A program made the translations under genes and the position numbers. DNA of 64,000 bases from an uncultured delta proteobacterium (GTDB lineage Bacteria > Desulfobacterota > Zymogenia > Zymogenales > Zymogenaceae). The stretch lies in contig CAWBYW010000016.1 in assembly GCA_963792965.1 (NCBI GenBank), forward strand, positions 115,925-179,924. Direction: 5' to 3'. This document shows positions 7,314-46,524 of this stretch, one piece after another; within the stretch, counting starts at the first letter, position 1; the number at the start of each line of letters is the position of its first letter. A model generated the notes under the pieces. It saw nothing but the letters and a program-made list of their open reading frames with translations. It did not search any database and had not been told where the DNA came from.

Positions 7314-10300
7314 TTACTTTGCGTTCGGCCGTATGGGCTTGGGCGGGATCGGGGTTTTCTTCTCCTCTTTTGGGATCTTTTCGTCGACCGTGGAGAGAAG
7401 CTCGGTGATCTCCGCATCGTCGGGGAGCCCGTTTTTAGCCAGCTTCAGGTACTTCTTTGCCTCGGTATAGTTCTTCATCTGAAAATAGATGAGCCCGAGC
7501 GCTTTTTCCGCCGGCGCGTTTTCGGCCTTGAGGACGAGGGATCGATTGGCCAGCTTCAGCGCCCTATCGAGCTTCTTGTTTTCTTTCGCGTACAGGAGTG
7601 CCGTGTCGGACCAGACCGAGTAGTCGCTCGGGTCAAGCGCGAGCGATTTCTCGTAATATTTGAGGGCCTCCGACACCTTTCCGTTCCTGAGGTAGTAATC
7701 GCCGATGGTACGGAAGGTGGCATAGTCGTTCGGCTTGAGCTTGACCAGCGCAAGGTAGGCCGCCTCCGCCTTTTCGGGGTCGGGTTTGGCCTCATAGGTC
7801 TCGGCAAGCCCGAGCATCGCGGGGTAGTTGTCCGGTTTTGTCGCCAGCGCCGCCGTCAACAGCTCAACCGCTTTGTCATACTGCCCCGTGCGGGAATAGC
7901 ACTGGCCCAACAGATAGTAGACATCGGTGTTGTCGGGGGCCATCTCCCGCGCCTTTTCGAGATACCCGATGGCTTCATCAAACTTCCCGGCGATCCTCAG
8001 CCCGTCGCCAAGGTCGATGTAGGGCCTCGGGTCGTCGGGGTAGCTCTTCATGAGGTTGGTGTTGAATTCACGCAGCTTATCGAGCGCAACGTCGTAATCC
8101 GGCTTTATCGAGAGACAACGCTTGAGGGAGAGCATCGCCTCTTCCGACCATCCCCGCACGGCGAAGATGACGCCGAGGTTGTAGTGGGCCTTGTAGTTTT
8201 CGGGCTGGATGCGCACGACGTTGTTGAAGGCCGAGATCGCCTCGTCATAGGAGCCGAGCTTGACGTAGTTGGTGCCGAGGACGAAATAGAGGTCGGCGTT
8301 GTCCGGCTCGATCTCAAGCGCTTTCCAGATCGTATCGACGGCGAGCTTGTATTGGCCGGTGTTGGAGTAGCACTCGGCGACGTAGAGCATTGCCTGGATG
8401 TTTTTCGGATCCCGTGAGATCACGTCCGCAAAGACCCCGAGCGCCTTCTCGTAGAGTCCCCCGTCGAAATAGGTCTGCCCGAGCAGTATCTGCGCGTCGC
8501 TATAATCCGGCTTGACTTCAAGCGCCTTTCCGAGGGCCTTGGCCGCTTCGTCGTAGTTGGCCAGTTGGTGATAGGCAAGCCCGAGCATGAACAGGCCGTC
8601 GACGTATTCCGGGGAGTAGGAGACCGCCTTCTTGAAATATTCGAGGGCTTCCGGCGTCTTGCCGCCTTCCATCTTCAGAATACCGATCTGATAGTAGGCC
8701 AGGTAGTTATCCGGGGACTGCTCGATCGATTTTTCGTAGTTCAGGGTGGCATTGTCGGTATCTCCGAGCTTCCAGTAGACCTGGCCGAGGCTGTAATAGA
8801 CCAAAAACTGGTTGGGATCGAGCTTGAGCGACTCCTCGTAGGCCGCAATCGACTTGTCGTATTCTTCCCGGTAGTAGTAGACCTTACCGACCCCCTTGTA
8901 GGAGCGGGGGTTGGCCGGATCGATGTCTTGCGCGCGCTCGTAGTAGTCCATGGCCTTGTCGAGCTCACGGTTATCGAGGTAGGTCTCGGCCATGAGGATC
9001 AGCGCATCAAAAAAGCGGGGGTCGATCTTGACTGCCATATCCAAGAGCGCCATGCCGTTGGTCTTTTCTCCCTTTGCGATATAGATATCCGCAAGCGAGT
9101 AGAGGGCCGTCGTGTTCTTCGGGTCGATCTCGACGACCTTCCGGAAGGTCTCGATGGCCGTGTCCTTCTGGCCCAGAAAGGCATAGAGATTGCCGAGGGC
9201 GAGGTAGGCGTCGACATACTTCGGATCCGTGTCGATGGCCTTCTTAAGTATGCGACGATGGCCGATTTCACGTCGCCGGCCTCGACATAGATCCTGGCCC
9301 TGTTATAGTATCCGGGCGCGTATCCCGGTTGTATCTTTATGGCCTTATCGATCGCGGCGATCGCCTTTTTCTTCTCCCCCATGGCAAGGTAGACACGCGA
9401 GAGCTCCACGTAGGCCTCGTAGTAGTCGGGCTTGAGCTTGATGGCCCGCTCCAGCGTGGCGACGGCATCACCGAACCTGCCGAAGGACGCATACGACCTG
9501 CCGATGGCAAGGTACGCCGGGTAGAAATCGGGCTTTATCTTCAACACGCCCTCATAGACCGATATCGCCCGGTCGATATCGCCGATGGCCAGCGCCACTC
9601 TCCCGATGTGGTCGTATCCGTCCACGAAATCGGGCCTGAGCTCCACGGCCTTCAGGTATGCCGCCAGGGCGTCCCGTGATTTCCCCTGGGCCTCCAGCAC
9701 CGCCCCGAGCTCGTCGTATGCCAGGTAGTGGTGGAATCCAGGGCGACGGCCTCGTTGAGGAACTGCTCGGCCATGACGTATTCGCCCTTCTTGAAGTAGG
9801 CGACGCCGAGGCCGTAGTCTATATCGGCATCCTTCGCGTCAAGGGCGAGTGCTCGGGAGAAGACCCCGATGGCGTTATCGGTGTCGCCCGTCAAAAGGTA
9901 GATCGTCCCGAGCTCGGAGAGGACCTTCGGGTTGTCCCCGGCAAGGGCCAGCGCCCGGGTAAGGACTGTCACCGCCTCGGCGTATTCCTTCTGAGCGGAG
10001 AAGACTTCGCCCTTGAGGATATAGATGGAAGGATCGGCGGGGCGCAGCTTCTCGGCCCTCGCGAGAAAGGAGAGCGCACCCTCAAGGTTCCCCGAGGCCA
10101 CCGCGTTTCTTGCCGAGAGGATGAGCGCGTCGAAGTGGTTGGGATCGATGGTCAACAGCGCGTCGAGCGCCGTTTTGGCCCCGGCGAAGTCTCCGAGGTC
10201 ATACGACAGCTTCGCCATGAGGAGGAGCCCCTCCGGGGAATCCTTCGCCGTCTCGGCCGCCTTCTTATACGCGGCGAGGGCTTCTTTCGTCAGGCCCTCG

Positions 10301-33932: not shown

Positions 33933-34580
33933 TCAGGGCAACCGTTCCCCCCGCGTGGACGCCCGGCCCTGCCCCCCGATAACCTTTACCGCCTCCTCAT
34001 AGGCCAGCACATACCCCCACCGATTTTTCTCCCTGTCCGTCCGCTCCGAAAGGAGCGCGTCGATCTCGCCGGTGTTCCGGGTGACGGGCTTGGGTCCCGA
34101 AAGGCCCTTTTTCAACGCGTCGATCTCGCCGGCATAGTAGACCGCGAGTCCCTCCGAAAACCAGAGCGGCACGTGGGTGCCGAAACGAAGCCGGAGAAGC
34201 GCGAGACACACCTCATGGGCGACGGTCGACTTCAACACCCCGCGCTCTTTCAGGACGTTCACCGGCTGCAGGTAGATCGATCCGTCGATCATCGCCGAGG
34301 CCGACCAGAACGGCAGCCTCGTCTGGGCCGTGAAATCTCCGGTCTCCTTGAAGATCACCACGTCGATGGGACGGCCCGCGCCGCTCCCAACCCTCGTTTC
34401 CATCGCGGTGTATGCCGATTCGAGGGCGTCCTTTACCTCCGAGAGCTCGCCGGCCCGAAGGGTCTCGGCGAAATAGATATTGAAATGCCGTGTCTGGGTC
34501 TGGGCAAAGTCAAGGGCGCCTGCCTCTCGGCTGATGACGAGAAGAAGGCACGAGATCAGAAATAGGAACGGTCTTCTCAA
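33933..34580 (-). CDS. Secreted hypothetical protein (last gene of the A2M-PBP operon)
   Basis: Signal peptide. There are 4-nt overlaps with the upstream PBP gene. No confident family is recognised (an HEVCL segment is present but there is no HExxH). Confidence 0.4.
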   Translation of the reverse strand: MRRPFLFLISCLLLVISREAGALDFAQTQTRHFNIYFAETLRAGELSEVKDALESAYTAMETRVGSGAGRPIDVVIFKETGDFTAQTRLPFWSASAMIDGSIYLQPVNVLKERGVLKSTVAHEVCLALLRLRFGTHVPLWFSEGLAVYYAGEIDALKKGLSGPKPVTRNTGEIDALLSERTDREKNRWGYVLAYEEAVKVIGGQGRASTRGERLP

Positions 34581-35605
34581 TCCGTATGCACGCCTCCGAA
34601 ATAGACGCGGAAAACCTCCCGGGCCACCGGCGCGGCATCCTCACCCCCCCGGCCGTGGTAGAGGAAGACGACCACGGCGATCTCGGGGTTCTCGGCGGGG
34701 GCAAAACCCAAGAACCAGGCGTGAGTCGCCCAGCTGGAGCCGAGGAACTCGCCGGTGCCGGTTTTGCCCATAATCTCGTGCCCGTCCGGCGTCCCCTTGA
34801 CGGCGGTTCCGTACGCCGCCGCATCGCGCATTCCCTCGGCGAGGATCGGCGCCGCGCGGGAAACCTCTACCTTCCTGTTGAGTCTCGGCGAAAATGAACC
34901 GATATCGTCTGCGGTGGGGGTCACGCGGGGAACCCAGATACTGCCCCCGTTCACGAGGGCCGAAAGATTCACGATCACCTGAAGGGGCGTCGCCGTGACG
35001 TTGTCGGTGTCTCCGATGACATACTCACGGGCAAACGCCGGCTCGGGGGGGATGAGCCTTCCCGCCTCCTCCTGTGGAAGGTTGACCCCGGTCTTTTCTC
35101 CAAACCCGAGCTCGGAAAGCCCCCGGTAGGTGGTGTCGGCGCCCAGCGTCTCGGCAAGGGAAAGGAAATAGAGATTACACGAGTAGGCGATCCCGCGGAC
35201 AAGGTTGAGATCACCGTGTCCGGGGGGGTACCAGCAATCGTATTTCGTTCCCGATATAACGGCACTCCCGGTACACCTGAAGCGAGCGTCGGGAGAGATA
35301 CGCTTCTCTTCGATCCCTTTCCAGACGCTCACAAGCTTGACGAGCGAGCCGGGGGGAAAGGCCCAGCGTGTCGCCATGTCGGGCCCCACCATCGCTCTGA
35401 TGCGTCCCGTCTTCACGTCCATGACGACGACCGCCCCGGTCCGGCCCGCCAGGGCGTCGGATGCCGCGCTTTCGAGGAGGGCGTCGCCTTTCAACACCTG
35501 TTCCGGGCCCGGCCTGCAACCCGAGGCGAAGAGAAATAAAAGGGCGACCCCCCCGATGAGGGGTCGCCGAAAGAGTAAACGAATCCGCCGCCGGATCCCC
35601 GTCAT
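34577..35605 (-). CDS. Penicillin-binding protein, transpeptidase-domain-only (PbpC-like partner of alpha-2-macroglobulin)
   Basis: Lipobox-like LFLFASGC. Transpeptidase motifs include SxxK (PGSLVKLV), SCN (YSCNLYF) and KTG (GKTGTGEF). There is no transglycosylase domain. It overlaps the A2M stop by 4 nt. Confidence 0.75.
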   Translation of the reverse strand: MTGIRRRIRLLFRRPLIGGVALLFLFASGCRPGPEQVLKGDALLESAASDALAGRTGAVVVMDVKTGRIRAMVGPDMATRWAFPPGSLVKLVSVWKGIEEKRISPDARFRCTGSAVISGTKYDCWYPPGHGDLNLVRGIAYSCNLYFLSLAETLGADTTYRGLSELGFGEKTGVNLPQEEAGRLIPPEPAFAREYVIGDTDNVTATPLQVIVNLSALVNGGSIWVPRVTPTADDIGSFSPRLNRKVEVSRAAPILAEGMRDAAAYGTAVKGTPDGHEIMGKTGTGEFLGSSWATHAWFLGFAPAENPEIAVVVFLYHGRGGEDAAPVAREVFRVYFGGVHTD

Positions 35606-38600
35606 TTCCCCTCGGTGATGACAAGGCTTGAGCTTCCCGTCCTTCCGAAGCGGTCCGGGAAGTACATCAGGTACGCCTCGGCCGGCATGACACCGTAGGT
35701 CCCCGGGTTTTGGGCGCGGAGGATATACTTGAAGACATAGGTCCCCACGTCGACGTAGTCCATCGATAGAGCGATCCGCTCATCCCGGAATTCCCTTCCG
35801 GCAAACCACCAGTCCGCATCGCCGGTATAGAGATCGTCCCCGGAGATGACATAGTTTTTATCGTCGCTGATGGCCTCATAGCCCGCCGGGTAGTAGTCCT
35901 CCAGCAGGAAGTATTGGGCCTTCTTGTCGGTCGTGACCGAAAGCTCCACGAGGATCTCGTCCCCGCTACTGACCGGGCCGCTGAGCGGCACCTTCGCGTA
36001 GATGAGCTCTCCCTTCTTGGGCACCTTCTTGAGGAGGTAGTACTTTCTGCTCACGGCAAATCCGGCGTTCAGCGGGGCTATCGAGGGGGCCGCGCTGTAG
36101 TGCGTGAAGGTCGAGGAATAGTAGAGGCTACCCGGCCCGTCCTTCTTGATGACGATCGTATTGGGGCCGGTCTTGAGATCCCCTTCCTTGACGGTAATCG
36201 TTCCCCCCTCGGTGAGCATCGTCTCCTTGGTGATGTGGCTCTTCTTGAGCTGTTTGCCGTTGAGGGTAAGCGTCATGGTGTAGTTCGGCTTGATCTCCCC
36301 GGTCCGGGTGATGTAGTCCGTCAGGGCATAGATGATCTTCCCCGTGGCCTTGGTGGAGCGCCAGTAGCTTCCGGTCCGGTTGATGATAAGCCAGCGGATC
36401 GTCTTGGGGATGAGGGGATTATTGACGTCGCGCATGGCCATCACCCGCAAAACGTACGCGGTGGTCTCCAGGGGATCGGCCTCCCAGTCCCACCAATAGA
36501 AGTCCTCTCCGACGTAACCCCAGTGAACATAGCCGTTCTCCTGGATCTTTTCCTTCATGAGCAGGTCATACAGGACGTTGGCCTTCTCCCGGATCCCCTC
36601 GTTCTCGTAGGCCAACAGCAGCATCGCCTGAGAAATGGGGGTGAGCTTGTCGCGCTTCTCGAACATCTCGTCGAGCCACGCGGTCTTGAGCTTGTCCGTG
36701 TAGGACAAGACGTAGAGGGCGTAGACCTTGACGGAGTCCTGATCGATCTTGCTCAGCTGAGAGATGAGGGACGCGGTGCCGCGCTTGATGACGCCCTCGT
36801 CCACGGTGATGGGAATGCCTGCCTCGGGAAGGAGGCGTTTCGCTTCGAGGAGCCCGTACAACACGTAGGCGGTCATGTAGGGATCGGTCTCGTCGAACTC
36901 GTACCACCCCCAGCCGTTATCGTCGTGCTGCCGTTTGTAGAGCACCATGAGCCCGCTCTTGATGTAGGCGGGGAGGTCCTTCTCTACGCTCTTATCGGAA
37001 AGGTCAAGCTTCTTTAATACCGACGCGACCATGACTGATGGCAAGAACCTTGCCATTACCTGCTCGTTTCACCCATAGGGGTAGCCGACGAGGAATGGTA
37101 TAGCGGCAAGCATTGTGTTGACGAGCGATGGACTGGTGGTAATGGTGAGCTCAGCAGCGTTCTTTATCGTGTTGGCGGGCTTGTTGACCGTCACCGTGAG
37201 CGTCCCGGAGTCCTTGATGATCTCTCCCATATCGTTCTTTGTCTCTTTGATGCCGAGCGGGAGGATCGGCACCTTTATCTCCATTCCGTCGGAGACCTCG
37301 TTGGTCATCGCCTTTGCCGTGAGAACGGCACTTCCCACGAGGTCCGCCCTGACGTGCCAGTCGACGCGCTTCTCTCCGTTTTTCGGGACGATTGCATCGA
37401 CCGGAACGCCGGAAGCGAGCGTCAATCCCTTTGCGTCGAACGTGAAGTGCACCTTCTTGTCGGTCGACAGGTAATTATGGGCGATGGTGGAGATTACGAG
37501 GTCGTCCCCCTGGCGCAGAAATCGCGGCGCCTCTATGCGGACGAGTAAGTCCTTGCGCTCGATGACCCGGTAGGTAGTCTCCCCCATGCTGTCGCCCGTG
37601 GTCACCCCCCGGACCGTCGCACGCCAACGCGTCAGGTTGTCCGGGAAGGTGACGGTGACCGTGGCCATACCCTTTGCGTTGGTCGTGATCGTGGGCGACC
37701 AGTACATCGTGTCCTTGAAGTCCTTTCGGATCAGCGGTTGAACGAGCGTGTCTCCCTTGAAGTCGGCAAGCTTCGTCTCTTTTTCCGGAAGTCCCGCCAG
37801 GAGTCCTTTCCGGTGAGAGTATCCGTAAAAGCGGAAGTAGAGGGATGACGACGTGTCCACGGAATGATAGCGCAGCGAGTAGAAATACTTCTGGATTTCG
37901 TCGACAAGCTCCGGTGAGATGGCGTAGATGGCGTCGTCCACGACGCCGAGCGACACCTCTGCCGACACGGGTTTGCCTGTGCTGTCCGTCGTCTTTATCG
38001 TAAAGGTGCCCTTTTCTTGCGGCTCGTACGTCGCCTTATTGGAGGTCACCTCGACGTTGATGAACTTTTCGGTCGGTGGGATGATGATGTTCTTGCTGTC
38101 CGAATAGAGCTCATCGTTGAAGATCGCGGCAACCGAGAGGTAGATGTTGGGGGTGTATCTCTCCTTTATGGGGAGATCCAGCATCGCCGTGCCACCCGTG
38201 GCTTTGATGACTCGGCTATCAAGGATCGAGTCTCCCTCGGTGGTAATCAACAGATAGGTATCCTTCACCGGCGCGGCGATCAGGATGTGGGCGGTATCGC
38301 CCACCGCGTAGGTATCCTTGTCGGGGATAATCGTGACGCCGCCCTCCGACGTCCCGCCGTAGGCATACCCCTCCGTAAAGGAATACGATGAGTCCTTGGC
38401 CGTGGTGGAGTTGCCCGCGTTATCGAAGACCGTGGCGATGAAATTGACGTCGCCCACGTTTTTCACCGTATATTCGATGACGGCGTCCCCACCGGAGTTC
38501 GTCCTTCCCGAAAGGGTGGCCGAGCTCGTGACCTTGCCCCCCTGCCAGTCGGTCTCCGTGACGATGAGCGTCACCGGCACATTCGCCACACCCTTGTTGT

Positions 38601-40254
38601 CAAAGTCGGAGACGTTGACCGTGATCCGCGCCTTATCCCCCGGCGCGTAGACCCAGCGGTCGGGACGTAGCGAAACGGTGTAGTTTGACCGAACGACCTT
38701 GACGACGCTGCTGGTGGTAACCACCCGGCGCGAGAGATCGGTAACGTTGGCCTCGATGGTGAAGGTATAGTCGTTGTCGGGCGACTCAAGGTATTGCGAC
38801 GTGTCTACCGTGAGCCTGAGCTTCCCGGCGTTGTCGAGCATAGCCGTGCCACTGTCCACCATGACCTTCTCGGTGGCGGTCCAGTAGTCTTCGTCCATGA
38901 AGTACCAGCCCCAGTCGTACCCCCACCACCAGGGGCGCTCGTAGACCGACCGGTAGACCGTATAGTCCACCTTGGCCTCCGTTACGGGGCTGCCGAAGTA
39001 GTAGCCCGCCTCGATATCGGCCGTGATCGTGTCGCCCCGGATGTAGACGTTCTTATCCGTCCTGATCTTGACCTCGTATTCGGGCTTCTTGTACTCCTCC
39101 ACCTTGAAGCTGTTGTAGTAGTTCTGTCCATTCAGTCCCACGACGATCTGATATTCGCCGAGCGAGGGCTCCTCTCCGAGGGTGAAGTCCCCCGAGAGGC
39201 TCCCGTACTTATTAATCTTATAGTTGTTCCGGAAGACCTCGTCGCCCTTGGCGTCGTCGATGATGACCAGGTAGTCGTCGCCGGTGTCGGGAACCTTCAG
39301 CCCCGAGTCGGTGGCGTTTCTCAGGATCGAGCGAAAATGCACCGTGTCGCCGGGACGGTAGACGGGTCGGTCGGTGTAGGTGTAGACCTTGTCGCTTGCT
39401 TCCCCTTCCCCGTAGGCATAGGGGTCGGCCAGGGTGAAGTTCTCGCCGTCCTGGGCGAAGACATAGATGACGTCACTCTCGGTCGCTTTCACCTTGGAGT
39501 AGTAGATCCCGTCGGAGTCCGTCTTCCCCTTGAAGAGGAGTTTTTTCTGGTTGTCGTAGACCGATACCTTAACGCCTTTCATCGGTTTGCCGGTTACCCG
39601 GTCGGCCACGTAGATAAGGCTGTCGGTGCTCGAGTTCTTCACGACAAACGACATGGGGGTAACGACGACCATCGTATAGGCCACCGAATCCTCAAAGACC
39701 GCCTCGACGAGGTAGCACCCCGGTTTCGGGACTTTGACGTCTATGTTGTGGTACTCCCACTGTCCACTGCCCGAGATGACCAACTTCTCCTGCCAGCGGT
39801 TGAGGAGCTTGAACTGGGTCAGGATCGGGAAGAGCTCGTAGGTCTGTGGCGCGGGTGAGACGGGCTCCTGGGCGTGCGGCAGGCCGAGTGCCGAGACGAC
39901 ATCGTCTCGGATGTTGTCGGAGAGTTTTGAGCGATAGTCGTCCCGGAAGAGTTCTACCCCCTTCCGTTTGATCGCCCCAACCATCTCGGCGGGGGCCGAT
40001 GTCCCCCGTTTCGTCGTCACCACCGGCGAGTGGACGTCATCGAGCCCGAGGAAGTACGATTTCGGATCGTCTACCCGGTAGAGCCGGATATCGAGGGACG
40101 GGACATCCATGGAGGAAACGGTGACGGTGACGGGCTCCCCCGGAGCGAAGATCTTGTCCGTGGAGAGCTCAAAGGAGCCTGCGAGCGTCACGGCCGGCAG
40201 TGTTAAGAGCAATACGATCGAAAGAATAAGGGACTTTTTCATAGTTTCCCTCAA
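35602..40254 (-). CDS. Periplasmic alpha-2-macroglobulin, about 1550 aa, interrupted by a single in-frame TGA at the thioester-cysteine position
   Basis: Signal peptide followed by about 1000 aa of MG-type beta-sandwich repeats. Then comes GYPYG-[TGA]-NEQ, aligning with the canonical GYPYGCxEQ thioester motif. An alpha/alpha-toroid thioester-containing (TED) domain follows (DDNGWGWY...), then a C-terminal receptor-binding-like domain. The two ORFs (37069..40254 and 35602..37056) are in the same frame and separated only by the TGA at 37069..37071. Confidence 0.8.
37038..37056 (-). promoter_or_regulatory. Perfect 8-bp stem-loop 12 nt downstream of the in-frame UGA (candidate bacterial SECIS element)
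   Basis: On the mRNA: UGA AACGAGCAGGUA AUGGCAAG-GUU-CUUGCCAU. The apical loop begins with G and lies about 20 nt from the UGA. Confidence 0.4.
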
Positions 40255-40485: not shown

Positions 40486-41583
40486 TTAGTTCAGTATCTT
40501 GAACCGATAATAACCCAAAAAATGGTCGTTCTCTCTTACCGGCCGCCAGCGCTCGTCCGGATGCACTTTGAGCGTGGCGAGCCTGACCTTCCTCACGTCC
40601 CCGTTATCGTGGGAGCGCGGGCCGGTGTGATAGACGAGCCAATCTTCGTTTACGTCCGAATCGCTCTCCTTTCCCCACTCGCCGAGGTAGATCATCATAT
40701 GGGAGGGCATCCGGGGGTTTTCCGGGTTGAAGAAAAAGAGGAGATCACCGGGAAGAATACCCTTCTCGGTTCGCCCGAGGAACACGACGTTGTACTGAAG
40801 CAGCGCCTCGGCCGATGCCGCCGCAGAAAAGTTGACGCCGATATCGGAAGGGACAAACGGCCCCGGCGCCGTCCGAAAGACATCGACTCCCAGCAGCGGC
40901 ACGTGGGGATAGGTGTACTTCTTCACGTCGGGATTTGCGGGGCTGACCAGCGTCGCGTAGGAGGAAAAGAAAGCGTCGTCGTGGCGCTTGAGCGCCTCGA
41001 CATAGGCAAAACGCACAAGCCCCGCACAGTCCCGGTTGATCTGGTCCCAGTGGCGGTTCTTCTCGTAGACTTGAGATTCCGCGATGGCGCAGAGCCACCG
41101 CCGGAAGTTGAGGCGGTCTGTGTCGCCGAAGAGCTCCACCACATCGGGAAACCCGTCCCCGTCCCGGTCACGCATGTCGGGGATAACATTCACCTGTGCC
41201 CGGGCAGGCGCCACCCCCGGAGACTCGGCCCGGATCGTGAGGTCACCCGTCTCGAAGGTCGAGATGAGCGTGAGGGAGGCCGTTCCGCGGACAAACGCGA
41301 GCGGTCCTGTTTCCACCCTTGTCGTCGCCGGGCCGACAAGCGTCACCGTAAGGGGTGCGCCGCAGCCGCGCGCAACATTCCCCCTGTCGGTCTTTGCAAG
41401 GATCGTGATCTCCACGGTATCTTCCTTGTTGGCCCAGAGCGTCTGCTTTGACACGGCGATCTCGATGCTTTTGGCCTTTGCGCACGACGTGATCAAACAG
41501 GCCAACAGGAGCGTCGAAAGGATCGCCGCTCCGCCTTTAATCCAGGTCCTTGACCCTGATCTTAAACCCGCCTTGAATTGCAT
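40486..41583 (-). CDS. DUF1175 (YfaT-like) family protein with N-terminal extension
   Basis: Lipobox-like LLLACLITSC. The C-terminal half carries the DUF1175 signature RDCAGLVRFAYVEAL...GDLLFFF...MMIYLGE...LVYHTGP...ERWRP...FLGYYRF, collinear with E. coli YfaT. The N-terminal about 170 aa add an Ig-like extension. Confidence 0.65.
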   Translation of the reverse strand: MQFKAGLRSGSRTWIKGGAAILSTLLLACLITSCAKAKSIEIAVSKQTLWANKEDTVEITILAKTDRGNVARGCGAPLTVTLVGPATTRVETGPLAFVRGTASLTLISTFETGDLTIRAESPGVAPARAQVNVIPDMRDRDGDGFPDVVELFGDTDRLNFRRWLCAIAESQVYEKNRHWDQINRDCAGLVRFAYVEALKRHDDAFFSSYATLVSPANPDVKKYTYPHVPLLGVDVFRTAPGPFVPSDIGVNFSAAASAEALLQYNVVFLGRTEKGILPGDLLFFFNPENPRMPSHMMIYLGEWGKESDSDVNEDWLVYHTGPRSHDNGDVRKVRLATLKVHPDERWRPVRENDHFLGYYRFKILN

Positions 41584-43280
41584 CACCGCTGAAGTTGACC
41601 CCCCCGTAGCATGAGACAAAAGATCTTCTGGTCAGTTCCACGAGCGGCACGAGCCGCTTTTCCGAATCCTGGTAGAGAAAGTATTTATAGTTTGCCGAGA
41701 TGTTGACGAGATAACCCTCGATCAACGACATGGCGTTGTTCCCGTCTACGTAGAGATAGAGGTCGTAGGCGTCTTTCGGCATGTCTTTTTGCGCCGAGAT
41801 GAACGCGGGCGACTTCACGAGAAAATCGCGGTCAAAAAGGCCGCCCGCCCCCGTCATCGAGGAAATAACAGAGAGGTCGTTGAGCTGCTCCATCGTCGAA
41901 AGGTCCCAGAAGAGGAAGAGCCTGTCATCCTTGAGCGCAAAACCAGGATTAGGCTTGACGGAGGCGACGTACGACGTCCCGTTCCAATCGAGGCTCTTTT
42001 CCCTGAACTGGCCCATATAGGAGATGTGAGCGGCGTCAAGCTCGAGGGGAGACGGGCCCGCATCTGAAGAATGAATAGCTGTAGAGCTTGCCGATATTGG
42101 TGGAAAGGGCCTCTTCTTTGCCCGGTGCCACCCCAACGGAGGCGATCGTCCTGAGGTACGGTTTTTCTCCCTCATACCCGATCCCGACGAGGGCCGCCAG
42201 CGCCCCCCTGCCGAGGTTGTTGATGATTCCACCCTCCAGGTCGAATCCGCCCTTGTCCTTCCATTTTTTCAGGATCGAGATGTAGTTTACCTTTTGGGCG
42301 ATGTCGGTAAACCAGACCTTCCCGAAATGGGTATAAAGGATGCCGGGGTCGAAGGCCCGAAACGCCACGAGCGCCGCCGTCTCGCCGGGCATCGCCGATA
42401 GGTCTATTGTCGCCTTATCGGAGAGCGACCCCAGCCCCGCCAGGAGGCTTTTCCCCTCGCCCCCGGTGTAGGGGGCAAAGAGCGTGATATCCGCGCCGGC
42501 CTCGGAAAAGGTGACCGAGAAAAGGAGCGCGTCCGTCCCCTTGAGAAGCCGTCTGGCATGGGCGACGATGCCCATCTCGGAGTCATCGGGGCTCATCGCC
42601 TTCGTTGAATAGAAAAGGATATGGTAGTCCTTTGGCAGGTGGGAGAGCCGATCCATGACGGCGGGGTTTCCGGAGAGGTTCTTTGGGTTTTGCCCCGTAA
42701 CGATGTCCCACTCGGATTTGAAGAGATCGGGGGAGTCGGAGACGATCGTATAGCCTTTGACGTTCTTGTAATAGATCTTCTTGTCTGTGCTCGCGACAAC
42801 CCAGACGGAATAGGAGCCCCAGTTTTCCTTCGTCACGTGGCTCGAAAAGATCGAAAAGAGGTTGATGAGAAAACCCTTAAACCAGCCCGTCTCAAGCAGC
42901 GCCGCCGAGGCCTCCTTTCCCTCGAGGGTCGTCCGATAGAAGACGGCCCGCGCACCTATGACCCACAGGAAGCGTTTCAGGGTCGGGCGAATCCCGGTCA
43001 TCTTCTCGATAGTCCCGAGCCTGGAGAGCATCGGGGCCGAGAGGTCGCTCTTGATCGGGCCCTCAAAGAGCGAAAGATCGCCGACTTCATCAAAATAATC
43101 GCTTGAGAGCAACGGCCTCAATCCTGCCCTGAGGTCCCTGAGGTAGACGAAGGAGTCTACGTTCTCCGGGATGATCTGATAGAGCTCGTAGGCGTCTCCG
43201 GCCACGGCACTAAGGGCCCCAAGCGAAAGGGCCGCGATAACGACCGCGCCGATCAGACATGCCCTGATCTTAGATCTCAT
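41537..43280 (-). CDS. Large secreted protein, YfaA/DUF2138-like (tentative), split by one apparent frameshift
   Basis: ORF 42036..43322 gives a signal peptide plus about 400 aa and ends in nonsense. ORF 41537..42232 starts in nonsense then continues with LELDAAHISYMGQFREKSL... The position upstream of DUF1175 mirrors the yfaA-yfaT arrangement. Confidence 0.45.
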
Positions 43281-43299
43281 GAATCCCTCCTTTTCTCCG

Positions 43300-43839
43300 C
43301 TATCGGCCGATGGGGCCCGCAAATGACTCGGGATCGGCCCCCGCCCGGAGGATCGTATTGTAGTACCTCAGCGTGACGATGTGAATCACCCGCTCGCGCA
43401 TAGTATCGGGGGTCGCCTTCATGAGAGCGGGGAGGTCCTTGTAGAAATCCTTCAGCGACTCGTTCACGTCGCTCTTCATCTCGGGCGTCGGCGCGCCGGC
43501 ACGACCGAGGCCCGGAGGTTCTTGTATTCGTCCCACTCGGCGTCAAGGATGACGTCCAGCGCGTCTCCCACGGCACCTGTGTCCGTCCCGCCGGGCTGGC
43601 TGTAGTCCGTACCCGACGGCGTCTCGGAGACCGTGGGAGGCACAAGCATCCTGGTCCCGGGCGGCGGCGATCATCTCCCACTCGTGGCGAGGGACGTCCG
43701 GATCTCGCTTTTGCGGCTTGGGATAGCCCGCCTTGATCTGATCGATCGCAAGGGTAACGTCGGCAAAGACCCCCCCGACCTTCGGACCCTTCTCTCCGGG
43801 CGCGGGCGCCTTTTTTTCGCAGGCCCACGAGAAGATCAA
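43300..43839 (-). CDS. Small secreted/lipoprotein, hypothetical (frameshifted)
   Basis: ORFs 43543..43839 and 43300..43536 look like two halves of one gene (signal-peptide-like LLSFLLIFSWAC...; C-terminal half KDFYKDLPALMK...). No family is recognised. Confidence 0.3.
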
Positions 43840-43911
43840 GAGAAACGAGAGGAGCCCAAGAATCGGCCAGAGCAGTCCCGGTCGGGCGCTCAGTCCGTCC
43901 CGCCGTTTCCG

Positions 43912-44779
43912 TCAGGATCGGCCGAGCGCCGAGAGGATCTCGGCCAGCGCCCGATCCGAGCGATACGTATTGGTCTTGATGTTCCATCCCTTCTCCTTCA
44001 AACCGATTAAGAGCTGGGTAACCTCGGGCAGAAACGGCCTCACGCCGTCGAGCGCCGCCCGGTCGGAAAAGAGTTCTTCCGGGGTGCTGTCTAGTTTGAT
44101 CTTCCCCTTCTCGATAACGACGATCCGGTCGGCCACCCGGATGATTTCTTCCATGTCATGGGAGATGATGATGACGGTCTTGTTCTTGGCGTTGAGGGCC
44201 TTGATGTGCCGGATGGTCTCGGTCCTCGACTGGGGATCAAGTCCCTGGGTGGGCTCGTCGAATATGAGTATGGGAGGATCCATAGCGAGGATCGAGGCGA
44301 TGGCGACCTTGCGCTGCTCACCGCCGGAAAGGGTGAACGGCGAGCGCGTCCTGAGCCGGTCGATGTCAAGGTTGACGAGGCCTGCCGCATCACGACACTC
44401 GCCTTTCGACCTCCTCTTTCGAAAAACCCCCTCGGTTGACGAGGGAAAACGCGATCTCTTTCTCGACCGTCTCCTCAAAGAGCTGGTGCTCGGGATACTG
44501 AAAGACGAGCCCTACCATTTCCCGCAGCCTGCCGGTCTTCTTGGTGGCGGGCGTCAGGTCAAAATCACCGACGCGGACGCTCCCCTTCGCGGGCGTCAGC
44601 AGTCCGTTGAGGTGCAGCGCCAGCGTCGTCTTCCCCGAGCCGGTGCGCCCGATCAGCGCGACGAACTGGCCCTCCTCGATCGAGAGGTTCACCCCCGAGA
44701 GCGCCTCCTTTTCCAGCGGCGTATTGGGGAAAAAGACATGCGAGAGGTCTTTTATCTCGATGAGCGGTGCGGTCGTCAT
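43912..44779 (-). CDS. ABC/ECF-type transporter ATP-binding protein (CbiO/EcfA-like), apparent frameshift at about 44410
   Basis: Walker A (GRTGSGKTT) and Q-loop in ORF 44390..44779. Signature (LSGGEQRKVAIA), Walker B (ILIFDEPTQGLD) and H-loop in ORF 43912..44478. Confidence 0.7.
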
Positions 44780-45033
44780 GAGACTTTGTAGACCATGTCG
44801 CCCGGCCGAACCCTGTCTTTGATCTTGATCCCCACGAGTGCGCCTGACGCGACCTCGGTTACCGGGGCGTTGTCGATCTGCATCGACTCCACCACTTCCG
44901 TGAAATCGGTCGTCGCACCCTTGAAGCGGAGCTCGTCCCCAACCTTGAGGGAGCCCTCGACCTTTATGGCGGCAACCGACGGCTTGGCAAAGAACTTGAT
45001 GACCTCTCCGATTTTTACCTCACTTGACATCAC
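44776..45033 (-). CDS. Small beta-barrel protein resembling EF-Tu/SelB domain II (tentative)
   Basis: 85-aa ORF with a G-rich beta-barrel pattern (IKVEGSLKVGDELRFKG...GALVGIKIKDRVRPGDMVYKV). It lies immediately downstream of selA. Confidence 0.35.
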   Translation of the reverse strand: MMSSEVKIGEVIKFFAKPSVAAIKVEGSLKVGDELRFKGATTDFTEVVESMQIDNAPVTEVASGALVGIKIKDRVRPGDMVYKVS

Positions 45034-45052: not shown

Positions 45053-46524
45053 TCAGCATGATCTATCCTTATTCATTCCCTTCTCATGGCCGACAGGATT
45101 CCGTTTGCGAGGTCCGTGACCTCCCTCTCCAGGACGGTTCGAGGATCGATGACGAGGCTCTCGTCCGAGATTCGTGCGATAATGGTCGGATGCTTGCGTC
45201 CTCAAGCGTCTCTCGAGCGCCTCGGGGCTCTCGGCCAGCGGAGCAATCGTTACCACCCTTGTCGGGATCTGTGCGGTGGGAAATGCCCCGCCGCCCACTC
45301 CCGAGAAGTCATCGGCGGTCGTGACGTGGAACTTCGGATGGGGCGTGGCCGCCAGCAGCTTCACGATCCTTTTGGCCCTTTTCTTCGTCTCGTCATAGGA
45401 CATCGTAATCATCGCCAGGACCGGGATCTTTTTTCGCGCATCAAACGGGTCCCGATAAATCATCAGGGTCGATTCGACGGCGGCAAGCGACAGCTTATCG
45501 ATCCTCACGGCCCGCGCCAGTGGGTTCTTTTTAATGCGGTCCGATCGGGTCCGCCTCCCCTACGATGAACCCCGCCTGGGCACCGCCCAACAGCTTATCG
45601 CCCGAAAAACGTAATGACATCGACGCCCGATTTAATCACTTCCGAGACGGTCGGCTCATGGGGGAGGCCCCAGGGCCCGAGATCCATGAGCGAGCCGCTG
45701 CCGAGGTCCTCCATGACCGGGATGTCATATTTTTTCCCGAGCCCGACGAGCTCGGCGGTCGACACTTCCTCGGTGAACCCGACGATCCGGTAATTGGAGG
45801 TGTGGACCTTGAGGAGGAGCGCGTCTGGCCGACCCGATGGCGCTCTCGTAGTCCGAAAGCCCTCGTCCGGTTCGTCGTGCCGACCTCTCTGAGGCGCGCG
45901 CCGCTCTTTTCCATGACATCCGGGATACTAAAAGCGCCGCCGATCTCCACCAGCTCTCCCCGTGAGACGATGACGTCCCTGCCGTCGGCAAGAGTATTGA
46001 GCGCAAGCAACACGGCCGCGGCGTTGTTGTTGACCGCAAGGCCCGCCTCCGCGGAGGTGATATGGGCGATCAGGTCGGAAACGTGGTCGTGGCGGGATCC
46101 CCGCTCTCCGCGCTCGACGTTGAATTCGAGATTGGAATAGCCCGAGGCGATGCGTACGATATGCTCGAGGGCCTCCGCGGCGAGGGGCGCGCGGCCGAGG
46201 TTTGTATGCAAGATAATCCCCGTGGCGTTGATGACGGGCGCAAGCTGACGGCGTGACCGATTTGATCAGCCACTGCTCGATGAGCGACAAGAGCTCCGGC
46301 TCCGAGACTTCGGCGGGATGCTCTTTGGACATGAGCTCTTTTCGCGCGGACAAAATGGCGCCTCTCACCGCCTCCTTTACCACCATCCTCGGAAAGCGCC
46401 TCGATAGTTCCGTGACCATGGGGTGAGCCAGCAGCTTATCCACCGCGGGGAGTTTGGCGAGAGGGGATTTTTGTGCCGGGTTTTCCGACTTTCTTGGCAT
46501 GGCGCCGCTCGAGATTTTTTCCAT
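45053..46524 (-). CDS. selA: L-seryl-tRNA(Sec) selenium transferase SelA, fragmented into 4 or more frames
   Basis: N-terminus KLPAVDKLL. Core [11 protein letters not shown]...[56 protein letters not shown] is nearly identical in pattern to E. coli SelA (PLP-lysine region). The C-terminal domain is [20 protein letters not shown]... The pieces lie in ORFs 45928..46524, 45636..46211, 45725..46039 and 45053..45508. Confidence 0.75.

Follow-up and report, generated by a model that had tools for sequence, protein, structure and literature searches.

A candidate selenocysteine codon and SECIS-type hairpin at the thioester site of a bacterial alpha-2-macroglobulin

The window analyzed here, a stretch of 64,000 nucleotides (64 kb) from contig CAWBYW010000016.1 of an uncultured delta proteobacterium of the Zymogenaceae, carries on its minus strand a gene for an alpha-2-macroglobulin (A2M) which is interrupted by an in-frame TGA. 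Two open reading frames (ORFs), 37069..40254 and 35602..37056, share one frame according to their coordinates and translation, and the TGA at 37069..37071 is the single internal stop in the minus-strand translation of 40254..35602; the original prediction, made from the DNA sequence before this analysis, had described two same-frame ORFs parted by one TGA codon, and this is confirmed by the translation. The context of the TGA reads AAIPFLVGYPYG-*-NEQVMARFLPSVMVASV...RQHDDNGWGWY in translation, and the local sequence around the stop is ...AAIPFLVGYPYG-TGA-NEQVMARFLPSVMV.... Pfam detects A2M domains on both sides of the stop, namely MG2, bMG3, bMG5, A2M_BRD and A2M in the upstream part and TED_complement and bMG10 in the downstream part, so that both ORFs belong to a single alpha-2-macroglobulin. 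The gene and its elements, including a proposed selenocysteine (Sec) codon and a proposed bacterial selenocysteine insertion sequence (SECIS), are arranged as follows; orthologues with TGA at this codon are referred to as Sec forms, those with a cysteine codon as Cys forms.

40242..35602, minus strand: complete A2M gene, with the TGA at 37069..37071 as its sole interruption.
37072..40242, minus strand: A2M part upstream of the proposed Sec codon, 1057 codons, ending ...FLVGYPYG.
37069..37071, minus strand: proposed Sec codon, an in-frame TGA where the CxEQ thioester motif has its Cys (U-N-E-Q).
37037..37068, minus strand: 32-nt block AACGAGCAGGTAATGGCAAGGTTCTTGCCATC, made up of spacer, hairpin and one extra base, the same in 9 of 9 distinct Sec-form sequences.
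37038..37056, minus strand: proposed bacterial SECIS core, an 8-bp stem (AUGGCAAG/CUUGCCAU) with the apical loop GUU.
35605..37068, minus strand: A2M part downstream of the proposed Sec codon, 488 codons, with the NEQ of the motif, the thioester domain (TED) and MG10.
35602..35604, minus strand: TGA, the true A2M terminator at the end of the gene.

The upstream part, which is identical to database protein P0001, begins with the signal peptide MKKSLILSIVLLLTLPAVTLA|GS, followed by macroglobulin (MG) domains, the bait-region domain and the A2M domain. A lipobox Cys is not present in this signal peptide, which is of the Sec secretion pathway, and the A2M is therefore probably a soluble periplasmic trap. 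When Cys is substituted at the stop, the site aligns in phmmer searches against PDB chains with the thioester Cys of TEP1 (GVPTGCGEQNM) and CD109 (MPYGCGEQNM), and the thioester region also matches Salmonella A2M and E. coli YfhM; the earlier claim that the stop occupies the reactive Cys column is thus borne out by alignment to proteins of known structure. The motif of the window reads U(TGA)-N-E-Q, with Glu and Gln retained and the Cys codon replaced, so that it departs from the literal CxEQ of type I A2Ms. The gene is a variant of the type I (thioester) bacterial A2Ms and not a literal member of this group. A reassignment of UGA in the genetic code was considered and ruled out: TGA is the commonest ordinary terminator of the confident genes in the window, the end of the A2M gene itself included, and the code is therefore standard.

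The TGA is separated by a 12-nt spacer, AACGAGCAGGTA (37068..37057, minus strand), from a hairpin consisting of a 5' arm, ATGGCAAG (37056..37049), the loop GTT (37048..37046) and a 3' arm, CTTGCCAT (37045..37038). The stem comprises 8 Watson-Crick pairs, and the G of the loop sits 21 nt past the UGA (20 nt between UGA and loop), so that the perfect 8-bp stem and 3-nt loop originally described 12 nt past the TGA were recovered exactly. Published rules for bacterial SECIS elements ask for an apical loop of 3-9 nt, a stem of 4-16 bp, a G in the first two loop positions, a distance of 16-37 nt between UGA and loop and a minimum free energy of at most -7.5 kcal/mol (PMC13188914). The window hairpin satisfies every one of these rules (8 bp, GUU, 20 nt, -9.8 kcal/mol), and the earlier statement that its geometry fits that of bacterial SECIS elements holds. 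The shape is rare: only 0.02% of synonymous recodings form 8 or more consecutive Watson-Crick pairs and also obey the SECIS rules for loop and distance. The A2M site is also the sole in-frame TGA in the window with coding-like flanks and a SECIS-type hairpin; the others lie antisense to real genes.

A protein search with the read-through A2M as query returned eleven clusters (90% identity) with 58-100% identity to the query, each of 1057-1063 residues and all terminating at LVGYPYG. The DNA of relatives was taken from species-representative genomes (L001-L005), from metagenomes (L006-L010) and from contigs encoding the database proteins (L011-L015). TGA is found at the thioester column in L001, L003-L015 and L018-L025, and throughout L001-L015, except in L002, it is followed by the identical 32 nt, AACGAGCAGGTAATGGCAAGGTTCTTGCCATC. 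Across orthologues of 58-83% protein identity, over 15 independent assemblies show it, among them SPAdes, MEGAHIT, JGI and Logan assemblies and MFD metagenome-assembled genomes (MAGs), and since these represent differing samples and assemblers, a TGC-to-TGA miscall is excluded. Past the TGA, the next ten codons (N E Q V M A R F L P) show no synonymous variation among the nine distinct Sec forms, although nine of the ten are degenerate. The flanking sequence behaves differently: of 23 degenerate codons whose amino acid is invariant, 21 vary, with 2-5 synonymous codons in use (Fisher p = 2e-6). Synonymous sites are saturated between the orthologues (dS 1.2-3.8), which rules out recent common ancestry as the cause of the identity over 32 nt. 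Non-preferred codons account for five of the fixed ones (GTA, GCA, AGG, TTG and CCA), the GC content at third codon positions of genes in this genome being ~0.8. Judged from these codon patterns, the RNA element is under a selection of its own.

Selection on the protein was compared between the two halves, and dN/dS amounts to 0.11-0.26 over the 488 downstream codons versus 0.08-0.24 over the 1057 upstream codons; by this measure purifying selection acts equally on both. The internal stop, where there is one, is always TGA, the true terminator varies between TGA, TAG and TAA, and the downstream part is open in all orthologues. The comparison of orthologues that had been suggested with the original prediction thus revealed no lineage-private nonsense mutation: the column is TGA in more than 15 assemblies, and the hairpin is nucleotide-identical.

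Two full-length relatives encode Cys at the thioester site, L002 (a Candidatus Zymogenaceae MAG; TGT, site region 9998-10040) and P0002 (L016/L017, GCA_016931225.1; TGC, with the site reading GYPYGCNEQ). In a neighbour-joining tree these Cys forms are nested in two different Sec subclades, with 90% (L002) and 88% (L016/L017) identity to their Sec sisters, which would mean that at least two recent Sec-to-Cys replacements took place. Common to both Cys forms are the changes GTA>GTG, GCA>TCG (Ala>Ser), AGG>CGC/CGG, TTG>CTG and CCA>CCG. Read by eye in the register of the window, 4 Watson-Crick pairs, 2 G-U pairs and 2 mismatches are left of the stem; in L002 the loop G is gone as well, and the SECIS-rule test leaves at most a 2-bp stem there. 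Ser at the Ala position is also found in distant Cys-type A2Ms. Keeping the hairpin thus seems to come at a price for the Sec forms, in the protein as well as in the codons used: they have Ala where Ser is usual, together with five non-preferred codons, all reverted once Cys returns, and would illustrate how SECIS constraints shape a coding sequence. Two more Cys fragments, P0280 and P0281, carry the same Ser. The substitutions common to the Cys forms might reflect convergence after the RNA constraint was lifted, or Cys alleles may have recombined with one another.

TGA at the thioester codon is not confined to this family. Further proteins ending exactly at ...YPYG or ...YPFG came from an exhaustive HMMER search in which the 400 residues preceding the stop were run against 1.84 billion representatives, and a third protein search, which returned mostly short fragments, added two extra TGA cases. 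At least five other A2M lineages show TGA at the thioester codon, in unrelated genomic neighbourhoods and with an in-frame xEQ and an open TED-MG10 ORF. L018/L019 read GYPYG-U-VEQ and have the hairpin AUGGGCA-AGUUUC-UGCCCAU; L020/L021 and L024 read SYPYG-U-VEQ and have the hairpin (U)GGCAGG-GUU-CCUGCC(A); both hairpins conform to the SECIS model. In the stem of L020/L021/L024 one A-U pair of the window is swapped for G-C, a double change, and between L020 and L024 the stem is kept although the flanks differ. The base 21 nt past the UGA is G in 7 of 7 lineage sequences, where it occupies a synonymous third position and is followed by the UU of a conserved Phe codon. In these other lineages the codons right after the UGA vary synonymously while xEQ is kept (Val GTG/GTT, Gln CAG/CAA), a mark of selection at the protein level, and those codons are therefore translated. 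Among the diverse representatives covering the site (n=153), 134 have GCxEQ and 11 have a stop there. P0123, P0225 and P0231 have Cys forms as their nearest neighbours, which suggests that Cys was exchanged for Sec several times independently. Nonsense mutations arising at random would not strike the single reactive codon repeatedly and leave the downstream sequence intact.

A gene for selenocysteine synthase, which the original prediction had placed 8 kb away, is located five genes upstream, 8.0-9.4 kb from the A2M site, and its position is given by Pfam as follows.

45073..46524, minus strand: selA (selenocysteine synthase), split over several frames, with Pfam Se-cys_synth_N and SelA on three ORF pieces.

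In Illumina-based relatives selA is intact (472-491 aa) and syntenic (L002, L011, L014 and L016/L017). An ORF of 86 aa directly follows selA in every related locus (window 44779..45030, minus strand; L011 5196-5456; L014 5115-5375; L016 5110-5370); its precomputed Pfam matches are to domain II of EF-G/EF-Tu, and it is a stand-alone, translation-factor-like barrel beside the Sec synthase.

We consider it likely, with a probability of roughly 80%, that this family represents a true Sec-containing A2M, in which the UGA is decoded as selenocysteine. The central proposal of the original prediction, a Sec UGA at the thioester Cys combined with a SECIS element, is thereby supported by the conserved TGA, the conserved hairpin, the loss of the stem in Cys relatives and the syntenic selA. 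One gene would then give rise to a secreted, type-I-like bacterial alpha-2-macroglobulin, with the hairpin 12 nt past the UGA acting as bacterial SECIS and recruiting SelB and Sec-tRNA(Sec). If it behaves like the Cys of the Cys-Gln thioester in A2M, C3 and TEP proteins, the selenol would attack the side-chain amide of the Gln during folding, and the resulting bond would be a buried beta-selenocysteinyl-gamma-glutamyl selenoester. Cleavage of the bait region by a protease would expose this selenoester, which would acylate an amine of the protease and so form a covalent tether. Type I A2Ms are defined by the Cys-Gln thioester, without which proteases are not captured covalently (PMC5764988). 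Acyl transfer should be faster than from a thioester, the selenol being the better leaving group, and in a ligation model a selenoester showed a 14-fold higher k1 than the matched thioester (PMC11600164). Given Sec, our confidence in the selenoester mechanism is moderate. The wider proposal, that a genetically encoded protein selenoester exists in several A2M lineages, has arisen more than once and serves as a hyper-reactive covalent protease trap, is one that we favour with some reserve.

Several observations weigh against decoding of the UGA as Sec. The folding energy of the window hairpin is unexceptional (-9.8 kcal/mol versus -7.7 +/- 2.3), with 19% of synonymous recodings being as stable, and folding energy was dropped as evidence for the hairpin for this reason. 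In Rfam, neither a scan of the window nor a permissive scan of 36950..37150 retrieved a SECIS family; no Rfam family matched the A2M hairpin at all, and this null result is uninformative. No selB, selD or tRNA-Sec is located in the 64-kb window or in any fetched locus: selB and selD were not found among the ~40 window ORFs annotated with Pfam, and ARAGORN runs on the window and on 15 loci detected no tRNA of any kind. RNAalifold found no common-register structure over all TGA lineages, only a weak, different helix at -2.9 kcal/mol. The lack of a single consensus is explained by the hairpins occupying different registers, and therefore no covariance model was built and no formal covariation is claimed. 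Furthermore, three of the lineages with TGA and open downstream ORFs lack a canonical hairpin in the SECIS-rule test.

L022, 13271-13273: TGA without canonical SECIS hairpin, downstream ORF open.
L023, 1754-1756: TGA without canonical SECIS hairpin, downstream ORF open.
L025, 1046-1048: TGA without canonical SECIS hairpin, downstream ORF open.

These three may have atypical SECIS elements or a different mechanism. Finally, the selA gene of the window itself bears six frameshifts.

These frameshifts are central to the likeliest alternative, in which the family is truly a selenoprotein family but the A2M gene of this genome is a fossil: the function of selA would have been lost, and the UGA would terminate translation, leaving a truncated A2M without its warhead. 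The six events are single-base (+1) insertions within 1.1 kb, mapped against six orthologues, and their density of ~4 per kb is 20-fold above that of the neighbouring genes; by tblastn frame mapping, the rest of the syntenic block (~16 kb) has 3 frameshifts and the 4.65-kb A2M gene 0. However, all six are +1 without a single deletion, and the corrected selA ORF is open, retains the pyridoxal phosphate (PLP)-lysine motif GDKLLGG and shows ordinary conservation. For these reasons an artefact is favoured over decay, which would be expected to add deletions and nonsense or missense damage, and the selA insertions in the window are probably assembly or consensus artefacts. Frameshifts typical of long-read consensus errors are also present elsewhere in the window and in sister MFD MAGs, and the downstream half of the A2M and the SECIS are undamaged. 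The frameshifts of the window are consistent with indel-type errors of the assembly consensus, and all consensus errors seen were indels and not substitutions, in agreement with the original prediction. The latter had also called selA degraded; the frameshifts are indeed there, but they look like artefacts. A fossil selenoprotein in a lineage losing Sec, which had been offered as a fallback, is thus unsupported at the family level and, for this genome, an unlikely minority possibility. Single frameshifts also split the ABC ATPase (~44410-44430), the protein of ~590 aa (~42030) and a PMT_2 glycosyltransferase (~32650).

The TGA could, alternatively, be a genuine conserved stop, with the gene giving two polypeptides: the first would run from MG1 through the A2M domain, TED-MG10 would be re-initiated at an AUG five codons downstream, and there would be no reactive residue, and the conserved block would be a translational-coupling signal. 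Gene callers indeed predict a second ORF from the downstream AUG (MARFLPS...), and GAGCAGG ahead of this AUG is weakly Shine-Dalgarno-like in the window clade. However, the Met belongs to the motif in Cys forms, too (CxEQxM), the Shine-Dalgarno-like string is missing from L020, L022, L023 and L025, and the AUG is sequestered within the stem. The xEQ codons are in frame and vary synonymously between lineages, TAA or TAG never occurs at the internal stop, and the Cys forms of sister taxa read straight through. In addition, the codon that was hit, in at least six lineages, is the reactive Cys codon of all 134 Cys-type representatives. We therefore regard a conserved stop as highly improbable.

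Downstream hairpins can stimulate stop-codon read-through in general, and the Sec machinery is only partly documented at these loci. Both points would suit a read-through of the UGA without Sec, in which a near-cognate tRNA inserts Trp or Cys, or a local signal recodes the UGA, and the hairpin is no more than a stimulator. Yet the hairpin has the SECIS-specific G-U at the start of a small apical loop and at the right distance, the residue replaced is always Cys, the chemical analogue of Sec, and in the window clade the locus has a conserved selA next to it, which makes such a read-through very hard to credit. A sequencing or assembly artefact (TGC or TGT miscalled) or a lineage-private nonsense mutation is refuted by comparison, as the same TGA is shared by more than 15 independent assemblies of varied technologies and samples; consensus errors do occur in the window, all of those seen being indels.

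The genes around the A2M provide the context for comparing a Sec-containing A2M with known systems. The gene order HPPK / selA / 86-aa protein / ABC ATPase / ~190 aa / ~590 aa / MagC / A2M / penicillin-binding protein (PBP) is conserved in relatives, and the direct neighbours of the A2M in the window are the following.

40486..41619, minus strand: MagC/DUF1175 gene, operon partner directly upstream of the A2M (Pfam DUF1175, 5e-61), its position conserved in related loci.
34577..35605, minus strand: penicillin-binding-protein gene, also an operon partner, transpeptidase only, 342 aa (Pfam Transpeptidase, 3e-46), overlapping the A2M stop.

The MagC/DUF1175 gene and two conserved proteins without a Pfam family (~590 aa and ~190 aa) precede the A2M at 40486..43987 (minus strand), the former of these two, upstream of MagC, being one ORF of 586-621 aa in relatives; the other genes upstream of the A2M have no Mag-family match in Pfam. 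The PBP matches positions 300-592 of the NCBIfam model pbp2_mrdA and is conserved downstream of the A2M in related loci. In all of these it consists of the transpeptidase domain alone and is not the bifunctional PBP1c which is usually paired with type I A2Ms. NCBIfam contains no model for either half of the A2M. The locus combines features of type I A2M operons, in its reactive motif and adjacent PBP gene, with one of type II operons, its MagC/DUF1175 neighbour.

Neither an A2M nor another thioester protein is included among the 119 prokaryotic selenoprotein families and subfamilies tabulated in May 2026 (PMC13188914), and no Sec A2M is mentioned in the main texts of the BSepDB and deep-Sep papers. 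Full-text searches for selenocysteine, selenoproteome or SECIS together with macroglobulin or thioester, or for selenoester together with thioester-containing protein, gave no relevant match. The remark accompanying the original prediction, that no selenoester A2M had been described, agrees with the literature searched. Both Sec recoding and the thioester trap are known; their combination has not been described before and would imply a new chemical use of selenium. In public records (P0275 and others) the two halves are kept separate as 'hypothetical protein' or 'YfaS family', with the C-terminal halves starting at MARFLPS... or MV.SVL....; annotated in this way, the family is systematically mis-annotated and invisible in databases. 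If decoded and reacting as proposed, this A2M would be the first selenoprotein whose selenium does acyl transfer and not redox or metal chemistry, and an internal Sec-Gln ester would add a new role to the chemistry of the 21st amino acid. The occurrence of Sec and Cys forms of the same protein in sister organisms, at ~90% identity, makes the idea directly testable by comparing ester formation, hydrolysis and protease capture.

Among known systems, the type I A2Ms (E. coli ECAM/YfhM and Salmonella Sa-A2M; PDB 4ziq, 5a42, 4u48) resemble the window protein in their MG, bait-region, A2M, TED and MG10 domains, and in having the reactive motif at the same place of the TED, with xEQ kept in the window. 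A penicillin-binding-protein gene adjoining directly downstream is a hallmark of type I loci (PMC5764988), and a PBP gene is found in this position in the window as well. Unlike type I A2Ms, the window protein has a UGA, and thus putatively Sec, in place of the thioester Cys and no lipobox Cys, its PBP is transpeptidase-only and not PBP1c, and a MagC/DUF1175 gene lies upstream. The latter feature is shared with the type II A2M/Mag operon (P. aeruginosa MagD, E. coli YfaS), in which MagC (DUF1175) is likewise encoded directly upstream within a multi-gene envelope operon. Type II A2Ms have no CxEQ motif and trap proteases non-covalently (PMC5764988). In contrast, the window A2M retains the motif, with proposed Sec at the reactive position. 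The absence of a thioester motif and the six-gene magABCDEF operon, by which type II is recognized, do not apply here, as xEQ and a codon for the reactive position are kept.

Bacterial selenoprotein genes with a SECIS within the ORF, such as formate dehydrogenase FdhF, share with the window gene a UGA aligned to Cys and a hairpin with G-U at a small loop ~20 nt on; a selA gene is present in the window too, though with its six +1 insertions. Most known prokaryotic selenoprotein families are redox enzymes or show thiol-oxidoreductase-like motifs, UxxC or CxxU (PMC13188914). Unlike in these families, Sec in the window protein would be located at the acyl-transfer (ester-forming) position of a 170-kDa protease trap. 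The eukaryotic thioester proteins (complement C3/C4, human A2M, insect TEP1, CD109) have a homologous TED with a GCGEQ-type motif, with Cys in all of them, and the text searches turned up no Sec form of these proteins. Synthetic selenoesters used for chemical ligation contain the same functional group, with faster acyl transfer than thioesters (PMC11600164). They are, however, man-made, aryl or alkyl and C-terminal, whereas the ester proposed for the window protein would be a genetically encoded, intramolecular Sec-Gln selenoester, and if it is formed, the A2M would represent a natural counterpart of the chemists' selenoesters, used for a reactivity above that of thioesters.

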